Source: Escherichia coli (GTDB taxonomy: Bacteria; Pseudomonadota; Gammaproteobacteria; Enterobacterales; Enterobacteriaceae). From it: a DNA stretch of 64,000 nt. The position numbers were made by a program. Within the stretch, counting starts at the first letter, position 1. Each line of letters opens with the position of its first letter. Positions 3,001 through 30,000 of the stretch are shown one piece after another. The stretch is taken from the NCBI RefSeq assembly GCF_003991155.1, contig NZ_CP031297.1. One strand, 5' to 3'.

Positions 3001-6000
3001 TAAGTGGTGGAGGCGGATCATTCCCGAGTGAAGCCGTAAGCAACCCTCTGTGTATGTGCAAGGATAATCTAGGGGTCCCTCGGCCTGGAGTCACCACTTC
3101 TATGTGGGAGCCAGCACGGCTCGTTGAATTTCAGAGAGTGCCTGGCTGCTCATCAGTCTTGAATGGTGTCAGGTTCCCGTTTGATAGGACTAACCAAGGG
3201 CATCATGGCATGGGAGACATGGATGGTGGTGATGGTTCTTTTATGCACTATCACTACTATGCGTTTCCTCTGTTGGTGATGCTCGATTTATTTATTAAGC
3301 AGACCTGTAATGCTGATGGGTATATGGATCTCGACATCATGTACATGTCGGAGCTCGACCCGACCTGGAACAATGATGAGCTCGCTTTTTTTACCAATCC
3401 AGAGGCGGCGGCAGTAGCAAACCCAATTGCGGCGGCTGCGTGTACTGCTGATGCTGTCTCATCAACCGCTGGAAAACCTTTAAAACAGCTTTTCTGGTGT
3501 GCTGGTTCATGGGGCACCCTGTATCCATTTAGTGGCAACCAGAATGGTGGAAAAGGTGTTATCCGCGATAGCAGTCTTCTTAGCACAAGGGTTCTGGCTG
3601 CTTTGCATCGCCGGGGGTTAGCGTGGAAGACAATGGGTTCTGAGGCTATGTGTAGAGGCGTTATTAGCCCAACACTACCCAAAACGCAGTACAAATTCAC
3701 GCTATTGCATCCGGTTCCAGAGACAAACTCATCTCACGTAATTGGCGAATCCACTCTTACGTGGGGTCTGGCGCGAACTATACCGGCAATTGGGCAAGAC
3801 CCTATTTACACCATCTGGCGATGGAATGATTGCTGTAACAATTGAGCAGACCCTAACGAATTTGCACGGGCATTTTAGATTATGCCCCAAAAGGGCCACT
3901 ACACGTACAGGTGGCCCTTGTCTTCTCAGATAGCATGGGAAGGTTGAAATGGAGAACACAATGCGAAGTCATAATTACTTTATGAAAGCTGTGGCCTCGC
4001 TGTTGACAGTAACCATGTCTGCGCTGCCGATACATTCCTACGCTAACGGTAGCCAAGACCAGGACATCACAGCGGTGGGTAAAGAGGCCCAGGCTTTCGG
4101 ACAAAACCTCTCAAACTCATTCAAGTCGAGCTCGGGGACTGTGCAAGATGGCACAATCTCTATGCCGACGTTGAAAGACGGTCAATTCCAAATGAACGGG
4201 GGGAGTCAGATTAATGTCAATGATCTATTCCCCGGAACGAGCGGGACCAACAATAAACCTGATAGTTATTACTTCCCTGATGCCAATAAACCTGATGTGG
4301 GCGGTCTGCAAGGCATTTACGACTCTGGCGATGACATGGACAGCGTGGGGAATAATGCAAAAGGGTCGCTGTGGAGTGATGCCAATAGTGCTAATCCATC
4401 AATCTCTGGTGCGGCATACAAGGTTCTTCTCGATGCCTCTAATCGATCACGCCCTGATTTCAGTAATGACCCGGTACTAAATCTAAGCAAAAAGACCTAT
4501 GAGGATATGGACCTCATCGCAGGTGGCTTTGGGGATTGTTCTGCCGAAACAACCATCAATCAGAATACTATCAACGCCCACATTCCAGAGTATGAACGGT
4601 GTCAGCGTGTTGTAGATCAAAGCGCGGACTGTGAGGTTGTCCATGACTACGACGCCTCTGTGGTGAAGCACTATGATGGTCCATATAACCTCAAATCTTG
4701 TGGAGAAGGCTGTACTGAGTTGTGGATTGGTCGAGTGGGGGACAACTACTGGAGTGGTAACTGCAAGATTTATGAGGAGTACACGCGGGTCCAAGTCAGC
4801 AATCCAGATGCCATAGTGTCTGCAACGCTTGAATACGCCAAGTGGGATGACTACATGCAAGTGTGGGTCGGTAAGTCCGGCCAAGAGACTAAAGTGTGGT
4901 CTGGCCCAGATGGCAACTTCCCTCCAGAAACAGCCGGTAGATGTGAGCTCTCCACGAGTTGGGAGCGAAACCCTAATGTTGATGTCACTCCCTATTTTAA
5001 GAACGTGAAAGATGGTGATGTTGTTACGTTTAAGATCCGCGTTTCAGTAAGTGGCGAAGGTGAGGGTTTTGGCCGCATAAAACTCCGCTATGACCCATCG
5101 AAAGCCATTACCAAGGATGAGTGGGCTCCACAGAGCTGCATGGATTCAGCCAAAGGGGTGGTAGATGGTTTTGCGGAAGGCGAGATCACATGTATAGATG
5201 ACCCGACTGATGCTACTGGCTGCACAGTCATCAATGGGATCAAAGTTTGCGAATCTCAACTCAAGCCGTCACCTTTGCCTGGTATTCCAAAACTATGCAA
5301 AAAGGTTCGAGTTAAAGCTGACTATGACTTCTATAAGGGGCAAATGGACTGCTGGACAGACCCTCAAGGTGAAACGCACTGTCCGGTAAACACGGGCGGG
5401 AATCTCGATAGCTGTCAGAAATATGAAGAAAACCCTCAGTGCGGCTTCATCAGTTCCAAATGTGTTGATGGTGCTCAGGGAAGTTCTGGTACGTGCTACG
5501 TCCACGAGGATACTTATGACTGTGGTACAGATGTTTCTGTTCCGACCTTGGAAAAGGAAACTGAGTACCAGTGCGGTGGGCCTATACGCTGCATGGGAGA
5601 TGACTGCCTTGATTTGACCAAAACACAAAGCACTGATTTTGCTCGCGCTACTGCGTTGCTCAATGCAGCCCAATTCATGACGCAGGATATGAGCTGCACA
5701 GGCCAAGATGGGGATGACAATCCTACCGGGGATGAAAACGTTATTTGCTCTGCTTTTGCAGGGGAAGCTGGCGAATGCAAGATAGCTGTTGGGGGAGTTT
5801 CTGATTGCTGTGAAAAGCCAACCAATATATCTCTTGCCGATTATCTGAACCTAATAATGGCCGTTCCAAAGCTCGATGGCGCAGTGATGGGGCTGACTGA
5901 TGGTAATGCGCTTAAAGGTGCTTATCAGGTACTTAGGGAACCTGCCCTTCAAGGGTGGACAGAAGTCACAAAACCGTTCACAAGTTATATAGAGAACGTT

Positions 6001-27000: not shown

Positions 27001-30000
27001 CAATTTTAACCCTACCGGGGTGCTTTCCCGGAAGGGATGGGCACCCTGCTAATCCAGGAGGCCCTATGCAACAAACATTAAACTTTGATCTATCAGAACA
27101 ACCCATCCCAGTGCTTTTGCGTGGGGATAAGTGGGATTCTGTTTGGTCAGAACTGACTGATAACGAGGATTTGAACTTCGTTGATGCCAGTAGAGGAACC
27201 AGTCTGTCATCGTTGATCACGTCATCGGTTGAGTCCATTCACACGGCCTTAATTGATGGGTGGACCATGATGATCGGCTATTCCAGTGGTAAAGATTCTG
27301 AAACGGTCTTGCACCTGTTCCTGATGGCCCTGATCCGGGCTGTAAGGAGTGGGGCGACCATCAGCCAGCACCACTTCATCTTGCACACTGACACACTGAT
27401 CGAAAGCCCAGAGGTAAGGTGGCTGGCGGATCAGAAACTGGCCGAGCTGGAGCGTTTCATTGCGAAGGAAAACCTTCCTCTGACCATCGTTCTAGCAAAG
27501 CCTGGGATCTCGCAGAGTTGGACGGGCCGAATCCTTACTGGGAGGGGGTTGCCTACGTTTTCCAACTCCACGGCCCGCCAGTGTAGCCAGGATTTAAAAA
27601 TCACCTCTGCCAAAAGAGCGAAGGCAGCTTATATGCGAGAGCTTCCCAAAGAGGTTCGACAGAAAGTCTGCCTTTTGCTGGGCAGTCGTGATGCTGAAAG
27701 CACTATTCGTGCGGCCAACATTGCAAAACAGCGAGGAAGCTCAGATCGCGTCATTAAGACGAAAGATGGGGGTGAGCTGTATGTGGTGAAAAACTGGTTG
27801 GCGAGTGATGTCTGGGAGTTCTTACTATCCGCTGGCATGGGCTCAGCATATCCTCTGCCAAGTTACTTGGAGAGCAATGTCACTACGGCAGAGCTTTACA
27901 AGGCGGCAACAGGGGAGTGCGTGTGGTCGGCAACAGAGAAGAAGGCCAGTGACGCCTGTGGCGCTCGCTTCGGTTGCTGGGCTTGCCAGGCTGTTGGGTT
28001 GGATAAGTCAATGGAGACGTTGCTTGCCACGGACCCTGAAAGGCATGGCTATATGTCGGGGCTGAACCGCATCCAGCGCTACTTGGCAAAACGCCGGTAC
28101 GCATGGGAAGACCGCCATCCCGTAGGTCGAACGATTTACGAGGGCGGATACATCAAAATACAGCCGGACGTTTACAGTCCTGTTTTCCTAGAACGATTGC
28201 TTCATGTCTGTTGCAGCATGGACTACATGGAGCAAAAGAGAGCTGATGAGCTGGCATACAAGCTGGCTACTGGTCAAGCAGAGGATAACGACTGGAACCG
28301 TCGAATGGCAGAGCCACAATTCCGGATCATATCGGAAGAGGCTTTAGTCCATATCGACTTCATGTGGGCCTTCCATCATTTCAATGATAAGCCTTTCCAT
28401 GCCCTGGAGATTTACCACAGGGTTTGGTCGATGGGTGATCTGGACTTGCTGGAAGACGAGCCGCAGTGTGAAACCGTTCCTCAGTCACCAATTCCGAAGC
28501 CATTGTGGTTGAAGGTTGGTCGCTGGGGCGATGGTTCGCTTTCTGATGGCTTGGCCGATCCGTTAGCGGAAATGGCTTACTTTGACGGCGGGGATGACCC
28601 GTTGGCAGCGCAAGTGATCAATACCGCAGACGGAAAGAGAAGGGTGGTTTGCTTCGCAGAAGATGATGAAGTGAAAGTCGATCCCGACTCCGCTGCGTTC
28701 ATCATCTGGAACGAATACCCGCGACTAAGGGAGTCTGTACTAAAGGGACATTATACGCCCGGTAGTGCAGCGCAGTTCTACCTTCGGTTCGGAGCAATCC
28801 AGCTTGCGAAAGGAAAAGGCGCTTTGTATCACCGTATGATGCAAAGAGGTCAAACCTACCACCAGATGGGCCTTACAGGGCTACAGACGATGGAAGGAAT
28901 CCAACAGCGCAAGGATGTCAAAGTGCTTAGCGATGCTAAGTACAAAGATCTGGTGAAGCGAAAAATCAAGGGAAGACTGGCAACGGTACGCTGGTGGGTC
29001 AACTTGCACTTAACGTTCAAGTACCATCTGCACCACCGTACTCCGACGGGGTTGTTCATCGAGAAGCAACTTGACCAGGAAGCAATGGAAGAACAGAAAC
29101 GGCATCAGGAGCGATGGTTTAACTACGTGACTGACGCGATGCTTTGTTACTCCAGCGCATTCTGTATGAGCGTCATGGAAGGGCGAGAGGGGAGCGGAAA
29201 CGCCAACATTCGTCGTTACATGGCCGCGACCAGAAGGAAGGCTTATACGGCCCTCTGCGAGCTCTTGGACAATACTGACGCCCAGTGGATGAATGATGTG
29301 GTCCAGAGTGCCGTAGGGCAGTATGAGGCGATACAGGCAGCCCTAACCGAAGGTTCCGCGCTTGCTATCTATCTCGACTGGATCAACCTACTGTCAAAAC
29401 GCCATCCAGCCTCTTTGGAGCGACATGTCAGAACGATGATCAAGGCGGTTCAACGCTTACATCGCCGCGACGACACAGAGTTGCAAAGAGGACAGCAAGG
29501 CTTGTCCTTGGCCGCATAAAAAGCCCTCCTTCGGGAGGGCTTTTTCTTTTGCACCCCAAAAGGGCAATTACAGCGTTTTACCCTTTTAGGTGGCTGTCAT
29601 ACTCTTTGTTCATTGTCAGCGCTTGCTGGCTATAACGGTAGCTGGCCCAAAACAGCAATAACCTAACCCCTCGGGAGGAAACCCCTCCTGGGTTCTCTCC
29701 CACAAACAAAGGAGAGAAGCATGAGCCTAGACAAGTTAAGTCGGCTGGTGGACCAACAACGAAAGATCCAGGATGAAATCGACAATGAAATCATTCTGGC
29801 CGTCAAAGAGGTGTTGGCTACAAACTCAGTCGGTTTAGCCCGTGAGCTTGTTGGGGGTGTCCCGCAAGATCATCCATTCCATCCGTTTTTACTCGCTATA
29901 GCTAAGCAGCTTGACCCGAGATAACTAAGTAACCCAACCGGGTACACCAAGGCCCGGTCGGCTTTGGTGTACCTCCAACCAATTTTGGAGGCACTATGTC

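Follow-up and report, generated by a model that had tools for sequence, protein, structure and literature searches.

The four boxes found in the window (the whole stretch of DNA analysed, 64,000 nt of Escherichia coli contig NZ_CP031297.1) are true AcaCD-binding sites and were already known, the same sequences having been mapped and tested in 2014 and 2021, and we consider it close to certain (about 97%) that they are the AcaCD sites of four class II promoters, PtraN, Pvcrx087 (which shares its site with the divergent PacaB), Pvcrx098 and Pvcrx114. An earlier note on this DNA had described operator-like boxes at 3883, 8501, 18150 and 29551 and had taken them for parts of AcaCD-dependent promoters. 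All four strings are indeed located there, and the assignment to AcaCD stands, as each box is identical in 29 of 29 positions to a published AcaCD motif (Carraro et al. 2014, Table S3), which is also the outcome of the comparison with the experimentally derived motif that the note had proposed; the operator label does not, these being activator sites of class II promoters. The sites and the elements around them, with start sites and matching coordinates transferred from plasmid pVCR94deltaX, are as follows.

3878-3906, plus strand: AcaCD-binding motif of PtraN (29-nt MAST motif), 29/29 identical to 60398-60426
3929-3943, plus strand: PtraN -10-like GATAGC (3929-3934) and transferred 5'-RACE start site (3941-3943)
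3961-6756, plus strand: traN coding sequence (annotation), with its own AcaCD promoter
7778-8456, minus strand: acaB (vcrx086) coding sequence (7778-8419) and start site (8454-8456, from 64976-64978)
8492-8520, minus strand: reverse AcaCD motif of the divergent acaB promoter, overlapping the Pvcrx087 motif, 28/29 identical to 65014-65042
8497-8525, plus strand: AcaCD-binding motif of Pvcrx087, core 8503-8515, 29/29 identical to 65019-65047
8549-8561, plus strand: Pvcrx087 -10 TATATT (8549-8554) and start site (8559-8561, from 65081-65083)
18146-18174, plus strand: AcaCD-binding motif of Pvcrx098, core 18152-18164, 29/29 identical to 75267-75295
29547-29575, plus strand: AcaCD-binding motif of Pvcrx114, core 29553-29565, 29/29 identical to 86650-86678
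29598-29612, plus strand: Pvcrx114 -10-like CATACT (29598-29603) and start site (29610-29612, from 86713-86715)

What has been published, on IncC plasmids other than this one, comprises binding, mapped start sites, expression that depends on AcaCD and activation of reporters, while the window itself contributes sequence identity to the published sites, coordinate transfer and positional conservation. Carraro et al. (PLoS Genet, PMC4207636) determined the AcaCD regulon of pVCR94deltaX by ChIP-exo, 5'-RACE and RNA-seq, the latter comparing an acaCD deletion with a complemented strain. With AcaCD, expression rose from 282 to 2120 for traN, from 5 to 3445 for vcrx087, from 17 to 1093 for acaB, from 3 to 8357 for vcrx098 and from 1 to 2931 for vcrx114. 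The ChIP-exo peak heights were 9401 at PtraN, 19009 at Pvcrx087 (joint-highest; MAST p = 2.4E-13), 6039 at Pvcrx114 and 5602 at Pvcrx098, but the last gave no clear 5'-RACE start site (PMC4207636). Durand et al. (2021, NAR, PMC8373056) repeated the ChIP-exo for SgaCD and AcaCD, described a class II arrangement with the AcaCD site at -64 to -37 and assayed 23 single-copy lacZ fusions, including traN, acaB-vcrx087, vcrx098 and vcrx114; both AcaCD and SgaCD were assayed on the four promoter regions, and "virtually all" fusions were reported as directly activated by AcaCD, except vcrx035, vcrx036 and vcrx087.

The geometry in the window agrees with this arrangement. All four boxes are intergenic, point to the downstream gene and occupy -64 to -37, the vcrx098 value being counted from a start site predicted at ~18208-18210 from the 62-64 nt spacing. 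Indeed, the distance from motif start to transferred start site is 63 nt for traN, 62 for vcrx087, 63 for vcrx114 and 64 for acaB. The hexamers named in the earlier note were all located (AACAAT, at 18199-18204, being that of Pvcrx098), and at three promoters the published 5'-RACE start sites fall 7-9 nt downstream of them; the spacing from box end to hexamer start measures 29-31 nt, against the 30-32 nt reported previously, which is a matter of counting convention. Likewise, the extension T(A/T)(C/G)AGCGTT is seen after three of the boxes. The PtraN start site (60461-60463 of pVCR94deltaX) was transferred with an offset of -56520 across a promoter without mismatches to the window, and that of Pvcrx114 with an offset of -57103. 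Between the Pvcrx087 box and its start site the window differs from pVCR94deltaX at four positions. The boxes recur at orthologous sites in the ~70% identical plasmids pAsmA and pVPH2, where the flanking spacers diverge: the Pvcrx087 motif is kept in IncA, Xenorhabdus, pAsmA and pVPH2, its -10 block GCTATA-T is common to six plasmids, and the Pvcrx098 box has an orthologue in pAsmA (L005:30510).

Two features of the 8.5-kb site had been overlooked by the earlier note: it is bidirectional, driving acaB as well, and Pvcrx087 is constitutive besides being AcaCD-responsive, as determined with lacZ fusions (PMC8373056). Because of the latter, the first unit of the accessory array is not strictly AcaCD-dependent. 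AcaB activates Pacr1/acaDC, which establishes a positive feedback loop (PMC8373056), and the bidirectional site ties the accessory array to this acaB-acaDC switch.

We have also analyzed how far the sequence by itself discriminates the sites, using a position weight matrix (PWM) built from 14 other published AcaCD sites, with the four boxes left out. The boxes are the best four distinct plus-strand sites in the 64-kb window, scoring 27.7, 17.8, 17.4 and 14.0 bits, against a mean random maximum of 14.1 ± 2.4 bits (200 first-order Markov simulations of the window); judged by the PWM alone, chance is exceeded by a wide margin for one box and moderately for two, and the 18.1-kb box just reaches the chance ceiling. 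The acaB motif scores 21.7 bits, with the register shifted by one base (8493-8521). All four boxes correspond to the 29-nt MEME/MAST motif with core GCCCNDWWWGGGC, from which they deviate by 0, 1, 1 and 1 mismatches, the perfect one being the PtraN palindromic core GCCCCAAAAGGGC at 3884-3896. The published 13-nt core was rejected as a test by itself, being too unspecific: with at most one mismatch it has 14 matches in the window versus 6.5 ± 2.75 expected. Three further PWM matches, at 12061 (inside ssb, 13.4 bits), at 1046 (inside a TrbC-family gene equivalent to traW) and at 56304 (minus strand, in the insertion), are probable look-alikes and were rejected because they are intragenic or outside the backbone and score no higher than the random maximum, and because the 2014 peaks were only intergenic.

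The window belongs to the backbone of an IncC plasmid: its first 20 kb match many IncC plasmids at 100% identity, and positions 1 to 35867 are colinear with pVCR94deltaX at 98% identity; at 35867 the pVCR94-type backbone stops, and an insertion that carries IS5075 and Tn3-family transposase genes occupies the remainder. Relative to pVCR94deltaX, a segment of ~650 bp with vcrx096 (DUF3085) is missing upstream of Pvcrx098. The other published AcaCD sites (vcrx128, vcrx140, traF, vcrx152) were searched for across the window and none was found. The activator genes acaDC are located outside the window; in plasmid pVb2175, which matches the window at 100% identity in the part compared (the first 20 kb), AcaD and AcaC have the accessions WP_000891157.1 and WP_001020646.1, as they do in pVCR94deltaX, and through this plasmid the cognate activator is placed on the same element as the promoters.

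The earlier note had further proposed at least three AcaCD-driven units in an accessory array at 8.7-35.9 kb, in agreement with the published regulon RNA-seq, the terminators and the paucity of sigma-70-like promoters.

8559-35961, plus strand: AcaCD-dependent accessory array, orthologues of vcrx087-vcrx124, three units starting at ~8559, 18209 and 29610
17753-17782, plus strand: strong intrinsic-terminator-like hairpin closing unit 1, 13-bp stem followed by a T-rich tail
29523-29545, plus strand: intrinsic terminator GCCCTCC-TTCG-GGAGGGC-TTTTT closing unit 2, read directly from the sequence

In the published RNA-seq AcaCD induces nearly all of vcrx086-vcrx125, from ~0 to values in the hundreds or thousands, with the exception of vcrx097, which lies between units 1 and 2; vcrx125 is outside the block colinear with pVCR94deltaX. 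Sigma-70-like promoters are scarce in the array (4 and 2 found versus ~12 expected), and terminators sit just upstream of both the 18.1- and the 29.5-kb boxes. The second of these was absent from the terminator scan output, and its T-tail extends into the Pvcrx114 AcaCD motif. An Rfam match to ctRNA_p42d at 29518-29552 (30.3 bits versus a gathering score of 50) was rejected, as it corresponds to the same hairpin. A division of the array into three units is thus supported, with operon boundaries that we infer.

Could the boxes be chance GC-rich palindromes or small hairpin-forming repeats with no regulatory role? The excess of core matches and the 18.1-kb score, equal to the mean random maximum, are what such an origin would predict. 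It is nevertheless hardly conceivable, since the boxes are identical to sites that are bound in ChIP-exo, associated with start sites and tested in reporters, data that already refute it, and since position and orientation are kept in the ~70% identical relatives at a constant start-site spacing; a chance origin is dismissed because position and conservation settle what sequence scores alone leave weak. Palindromic sites near promoters, on plasmids known to encode the repressors Acr1 and Acr2, might also suggest operators for a repressor, e.g. Acr1 or the H-NS-like Acr2. This is equally implausible: the reported target of Acr1 and Acr2 is Pacr1, not the four box promoters, downstream expression is ~0 without acaCD and high with it, and the sites lie upstream of the -35 position, like those of a class II activator. 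Moreover, AcaCD alone, in plasmid-free conditions, activated PtraL, PtraI, PtraF and P152, the promoters tested in this way, and the AcaCD-dependent activation of single-copy lacZ fusions already refutes repression.

Another alternative accepts the sites and makes read-through from Pvcrx087 the main source of transcription in the array, with little added by the boxes at 18.1 and 29.5 kb. The prominence of Pvcrx087, with its joint-highest peak and constitutive activity, points in that direction, and the repeated RNA leader modules described below could serve read-through or processing. Strong terminators directly upstream of both internal boxes argue against it, as do the uninduced vcrx097 between units 1 and 2, followed by a vcrx098 that yet reaches 8357, the 5'-RACE start site that Pvcrx114 owns, and the separate Pvcrx098 and Pvcrx114 lacZ fusions among those reported as activated. 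We therefore consider read-through as the main source improbable, if somewhat less so than the two preceding alternatives, and retain the reading of four AcaCD-activated promoters.

A separate observation is that Pvcrx087, Pvcrx098 and Pvcrx114 each transcribe directly into a repeated structured RNA leader module, which is also seen in intergenic positions inside the array. The window has seven strong copies and one weak copy, scored with a covariance model (R1), and 71 further copies occur in other Proteobacteria.

8545-8625, plus strand: copy 1, Pvcrx087 leader, 73.4 bits
9587-9669, plus strand: copy 2, 88.1 bits
14421-14504, plus strand: copy 3, 84.5 bits
18255-18336, plus strand: copy 4, Pvcrx098 leader, 87.1 bits
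22667-22750, plus strand: copy 5, 77.2 bits
26463-26532, plus strand: copy 6, 58.7 bits
29594-29666, plus strand: copy 7, degenerate, Pvcrx114 leader, weak match (18.1 bits, E = 0.09)
32707-32789, plus strand: copy 8, 88.1 bits

In the module, for which covariation is strong, a hairpin near the 5' end is followed by GAAA and by a second hairpin, of 5 bp, whose UAGCUGG loop is invariant; an A-rich tail, with AAACAGCAU at its end, completes it. The genome-wide pattern scan specified ~17 bases in 596 Gb, for which about a hundred chance matches are expected, and only matches confirmed by the covariance model were counted as copies elsewhere. No Rfam 15 family overlapped any copy at E ≤ 1 over 36 kb, and short inputs at E ≤ 10 returned only sub-threshold snoRNA, miRNA and CRISPR noise; no description of the module was found in the literature. 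Its appearance resembles an H-pseudoknot riboswitch of the preQ1-I type, with a short hairpin, an A-rich tail and a 3' segment that pairs with the loop; this assignment was rejected, there being no preQ1 model match in Rfam and many copies preceding unrelated genes, which speaks against a sensor of metabolites. A loop-tail pseudoknot was likewise rejected, as no covariation is seen in the candidate helix, which would be broken by single-sided changes in two of the copies. The frequent G-U pairs, which are A-C mismatches on the other strand, disfavour an opposite-strand or complementary-DNA element. Sequence resemblance might also suggest an RfaH ops-like or lambda nut-like element. Tentatively, and with somewhat less than even confidence, the module may represent an undescribed class of cis-acting RNA, involved in post-initiation control (read-through, processing, stabilisation) or offering a protein or small RNA a common site to bind. 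If the cis-acting reading is true, the module operates across many conjugative elements of Gamma- and Betaproteobacteria; it may be new, and could show how long activator-dependent units are expressed or tuned.

In the mechanism that best explains these data, AcaCD, a heteromeric FlhDC-like complex whose genes lie elsewhere on the plasmid, binds an imperfect palindrome (GCCC-N5-GGGC) together with the 3' extension of this palindrome, at about -64 to -37 and beside the position of the -35 element. Bound AcaCD recruits RNA polymerase to weak -10 hexamers, and transcription begins 62-64 nt after the first base of the 29-nt motif. Derepression of acaDC then switches on traN, acaB (with positive feedback on acaDC) and the three long units, and because it turns on all of them, the accessory units are co-expressed with the conjugation genes. 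AcaCD control explains why genes for recombination, DNA modification and unknown functions, ~27 kb in all, come on with conjugation in a family of plasmids that spread multidrug resistance; the array includes ssb, bet, exo, a cytosine methyltransferase gene and numerous genes of unknown function. As regards the boxes, our result is a confirmation, as motif comparison, reporter fusions with and without acaCD and 5'-end mapping were published in 2014 and 2021.

The promoters of the window compare most directly with the AcaCD-activatable promoters of IncA and IncC plasmids (PMC4207636, PMC8373056), with which they share identical 29-nt motifs, genes, gene order and start-site spacing; relative to those of pVCR94deltaX there is no functional difference, only a few SNPs downstream of the Pvcrx087 box. 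The SetCD promoters of SXT/R391 have a homologous FlhDC-like heteromer, class II logic and syntenic tra, bet and exo modules, Ps089 being the counterpart of Pvcrx087 (PMC4542580). However, the operator sites of SetCD and AcaCD are reported to be very different and the activators non-exchangeable, and traN of SXT/R391 has no promoter of its own (PMC4542580), unlike that of the window. In pAsmA too traN is without its own promoter, the traU-traN gap being 10 bp with no site of at least 11 bits between the genes. More distant are the class II flagellar promoters of FlhDC in E. coli and Salmonella, whose heteromeric activator belongs to a distantly related family and whose motif is reported to be unrelated. 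In turn, SgaCD, from Salmonella genomic island 1, recognises the motif of AcaCD and activates every AcaCD-activatable promoter, these four included, but its genes are located on a mobilisable island rather than on the plasmid, and the induction ratios obtained with it are generally lower.

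The earlier note had proposed that four operator-like boxes at 3883, 8501, 18150 and 29551 belong to promoters activated by AcaCD, the FlhDC-like master activator of IncC conjugation. All four box strings are found at these positions, three of them followed by the TWSAGCGTT extension, as are the four -10-like hexamers, which start 29-31 nt after the end of the box. AcaCD binding has been mapped on the reference IncC plasmid pVCR94deltaX by ChIP-exo, with a 29-nt motif and start sites by 5'-RACE (coordinates in Table S3 of Carraro et al. 2014, PMC4207636). The sequences at the Table S3 motif coordinates were taken from NC_023291.1 and looked up in the window. 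This motif comparison, suggested in that note, resulted in exact 29/29 identity for all four boxes, at 3878 (PtraN), 8497 (Pvcrx087), 18146 (Pvcrx098) and 29547 (Pvcrx114); each published motif extends its box by 4-5 bases of flanking sequence. For the divergent vcrx086 promoter, 28/29 positions of the reverse-strand motif agree (8492-8520). The start sites transferred from the published 5'-RACE are the following:

3941-3943, + strand, traN start site
8559-8561, + strand, vcrx087 start site
29610-29612, + strand, vcrx114 start site
8454-8456, - strand, vcrx086 start site

These sites lie 7-9 nt past the hexamer, at a distance of 62-64 nt from where the motif begins. For Pvcrx098 a ChIP-exo peak is reported, but the 5'-RACE signal was not clear (PMC4207636); since the motif-to-start spacing is fixed, its start is predicted at about 18208-18210.

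The published AcaCD-dependent expression values rise from 282 to 2120 for traN, from 17 to 1093 for vcrx086, from 5 to 3445 for vcrx087, from 3 to 8357 for vcrx098 and from 1 to 2931 for vcrx114, and in Dataset S1 almost all vcrx086-vcrx125 genes, close to 0 otherwise, reach hundreds or thousands of units once AcaCD is supplied (PMC4207636). Durand et al. 2021 repeated the ChIP-exo, added Cappable-seq and made single-copy lacZ fusions for 23/23 AcaCD-activatable promoters, including traN, acaB-vcrx087, vcrx098 and vcrx114, and described a class II architecture in which the AcaCD site, whose core is GCCCNDWWWGGGC, spans -64 to -37 (PMC8373056). The 29/29 matches and these expression and reporter data support the interpretation of the boxes as AcaCD promoters, a finding already published in full, including every experiment proposed in the earlier note. 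A feature missing from that note is that the 8.5-kb box is a bidirectional control point. The gene vcrx086 has been renamed acaB, and AcaB activates Pacr1, hence acaDC (PMC8373056); this couples AcaCD and AcaB in a positive feedback loop.

Over its first 20 kb the window shows 100% identity with hundreds of conjugative IncC plasmids. One of them is pVb2175 (64001-84000), which is identical to the window over the compared region and whose AcaD and AcaC have the same protein accessions as those of pVCR94deltaX. Some IncC plasmids carry acaC alleles with frameshifts. The annotated gene order is traC, trhF, traW, traU and traN, followed by a long same-strand array to about 35.9 kb that includes ssb, bet, exo, DUF3150, VWA, cytosine methyltransferase, PAPS-reductase-like, yfbR and toprim protein genes and many hypothetical ones. 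Window positions 1-35867 are colinear with 56521-92969 of pVCR94deltaX (NC_023291.1) at 98% identity, the one exception being a vcrx096 (DUF3085) segment of about 650 bp, absent from the window, which accounts for the difference of about 600 bp in box spacing between the two plasmids. In pVCR94deltaX this extra segment occupies 74247-74897 (about 24247-24897 in its L003 coordinates), between the VWA gene and vcrx097, and its window counterpart is at about 17729-17774. Beyond 35867 the window has no match to the pVCR94-type backbone, so that the AcaCD promoters of vcrx128, vcrx140 and traF fall outside it. The stretch 35868-64000 opens with IS5075 (IS110-like) and Tn3-family transposase genes and is probably a resistance island inserted 3' of the vcrx124 orthologue.

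Strong + strand terminators are found just 5' of the 18.1-kb box (17753-17782) and, as read from the sequence, just 5' of the 29.5-kb box (29523-29545), and AcaCD does not induce vcrx097, the gene located between the first of these terminators and Pvcrx098 (PMC4207636). Sigma-70-like promoter matches in the two halves of 3.5-36.5 kb number 4 and 2, against 12.2 ± 3.4 and 12.0 ± 3.6 expected, a depletion that fits near-total reliance on activator-driven promoters. Terminators, depletion and published data support the proposed division into three AcaCD-driven units, with starts near 8559, 18209 and 29610.

In an alignment of the four window promoters, the leaders of Pvcrx087, Pvcrx098 and Pvcrx114 share GATAGCTGGTC-CC-AAAACAAACAGCAT, which the PtraN leader does not have, and across six plasmids the transcribed vcrx087 leader is more conserved than its promoter. 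Searching for repeats and scanning with a covariance model of this RNA leader module (R1) yielded seven strong copies and a weak one in the window, all intergenic:

8545-8625, + strand, RNA leader module
9587-9669, + strand, RNA leader module
14421-14504, + strand, RNA leader module
18255-18336, + strand, RNA leader module
22667-22750, + strand, RNA leader module
26463-26532, + strand, RNA leader module
29594-29666, + strand, RNA leader module, weak
32707-32789, + strand, RNA leader module

Three copies sit in leaders transcribed from the accessory AcaCD promoters, and in pVCR94deltaX copies are confined to this array. The distance from the end of each copy to the following start codon is 55-89 nt (for the last, to that of the small vcrx120 ORF). 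In the module, hairpin 1 (up to 10 bp, G-U pairs included) is followed by GAAA, by hairpin 2 (5 bp and a bulge, with UAGCUGG as its loop) and by an A-rich tail CC-AAAAACAAACAGCA ending in AAACAGCAU. Among 19 copies from three plasmid lineages, standard pairs fill 95.8% of pair cells versus 37-57% with partners slid, double-sided changes affect 8 pairs versus 0-3 with slid partners, and none of 500 shuffles attains the values observed.

Species-representative genomes were scanned by sequence pattern and then with R1, matches being kept at E ≤ 0.001. This gave 71 further matches, mostly in Gamma- and Betaproteobacteria (Shewanella, Vibrio, Photorhabdus, Marinobacterium, Comamonas, Sulfuritalea, Tepidimonas and others). 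In this set, whose alignment is fitted to R1 and thereby biased towards the structure, all 14 modelled pairs show double-sided changes, paired cells reach 92.4% versus 38-54% when slid, and the covariation score is 0.72 versus about 0.1. In 11 copies not selected by the search pattern the loop and AAACAGCAU are nearly invariant while the stem sequences vary freely. A loop-tail pseudoknot is not supported. Within 200 nt upstream, 14 of the 71 modules have an AcaCD-type box scoring 15 bits or more, against 1 in the downstream control; the box is 47-51 nt from the module in 11 cases, as in Pvcrx087, and 103-109 nt from it in 2, as in Pvcrx098.

No Rfam 15 family matches the module and we found no description of it in the IncC papers examined; Durand et al. 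2021 (PMC8373056) do not mention leaders, hairpins or attenuators. The genes 3' of the 71 modules are diverse. We favour, at a probability of roughly 40-50%, a cis-acting mRNA element that would protect or process the 5' ends of cistrons and offer a common handle to a trans-acting factor. Processive antitermination is a possible alternative role, of which we found no mention in the IncC/AcaCD papers examined; translational control would be another. For the full Pvcrx087 leader the predicted fold has -61 kcal/mol (z = -5.3); hairpin 1 forms its 5' end and the Shine-Dalgarno sequence is paired. A conserved hairpin at 8676-8716 (+ strand), GGUGUUGC...GCAACACC, takes up this sequence (AGGAG) and the bases preceding the start codon, which suggests translational attenuation of vcrx087.

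Another family of intergenic hairpins, GC-rich and AACCCCACGGGGGCACTCATGCCCCGAGGGG-like, is also observed:

9066-9096, + strand, GC-rich hairpin
12240-12270, + strand, GC-rich hairpin, just 5' of bet
18965-18995, + strand, GC-rich hairpin
22209-22239, + strand, GC-rich hairpin
31737-31767, + strand, GC-rich hairpin

A translational attenuator has been reported 5' of bet in SXT and is said to occur also in IncA/C plasmids (PMC4542580).

With a PWM trained on 14 other published AcaCD sites, the four boxes take the first four places among distinct + strand sites across the 64 kb (27.7, 17.8, 17.4 and 14.0 bits). Set against a random maximum of 14.1 ± 2.4 bits, these scores by themselves settle the case for one box and suggest it for two, but do not suffice for the 18.1-kb box; the 13-nt core by itself is uninformative. 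An AcaCD-like site inside ssb (12061-12089, + strand, CAGCGCCCCAAAAAGGGCAACGTACAGGA; 13.4 bits, one core mismatch) has no reported ChIP-exo peak and is probably a look-alike without function.

The support that the PWM scores lack comes from conservation. The relatives pAsmA (Aeromonas) and pVPH2 (Vibrio) are syntenic with the window at about 70% identity in this region. Strong sites precede the vcrx087 orthologues of pAsmA (25.0 bits) and pVPH2 (18.4 bits), the vcrx098 orthologue of pAsmA (21.1 bits) and the yfbR cluster of pVPH2 (19.1 bits). In the acaB/vcrx087 intergenic alignment of six plasmids the spacers diverge, while box, TACAGCG extension and the two -10 regions are kept. Adjoining the array in pAsmA is a Tn7-like element (L007 2152-11660; NZ_CP050188.1 155602-165110) with TnsA-like, Mu-transposase-like, TniB and TniQ genes plus type I-F csy3 and cas6f, which looks like a CRISPR-associated transposon. 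The 10-bp traU-traN gap of pAsmA (L005 13374-13384) holds no AcaCD-type site scoring 11 bits or higher, and pVPH2 has a 21.0-bit box directly after traU (L006 15683-15711). A traN promoter of its own is not universal among these relatives, and pAsmA resembles in this respect SXT/R391, where traN is likewise without one.
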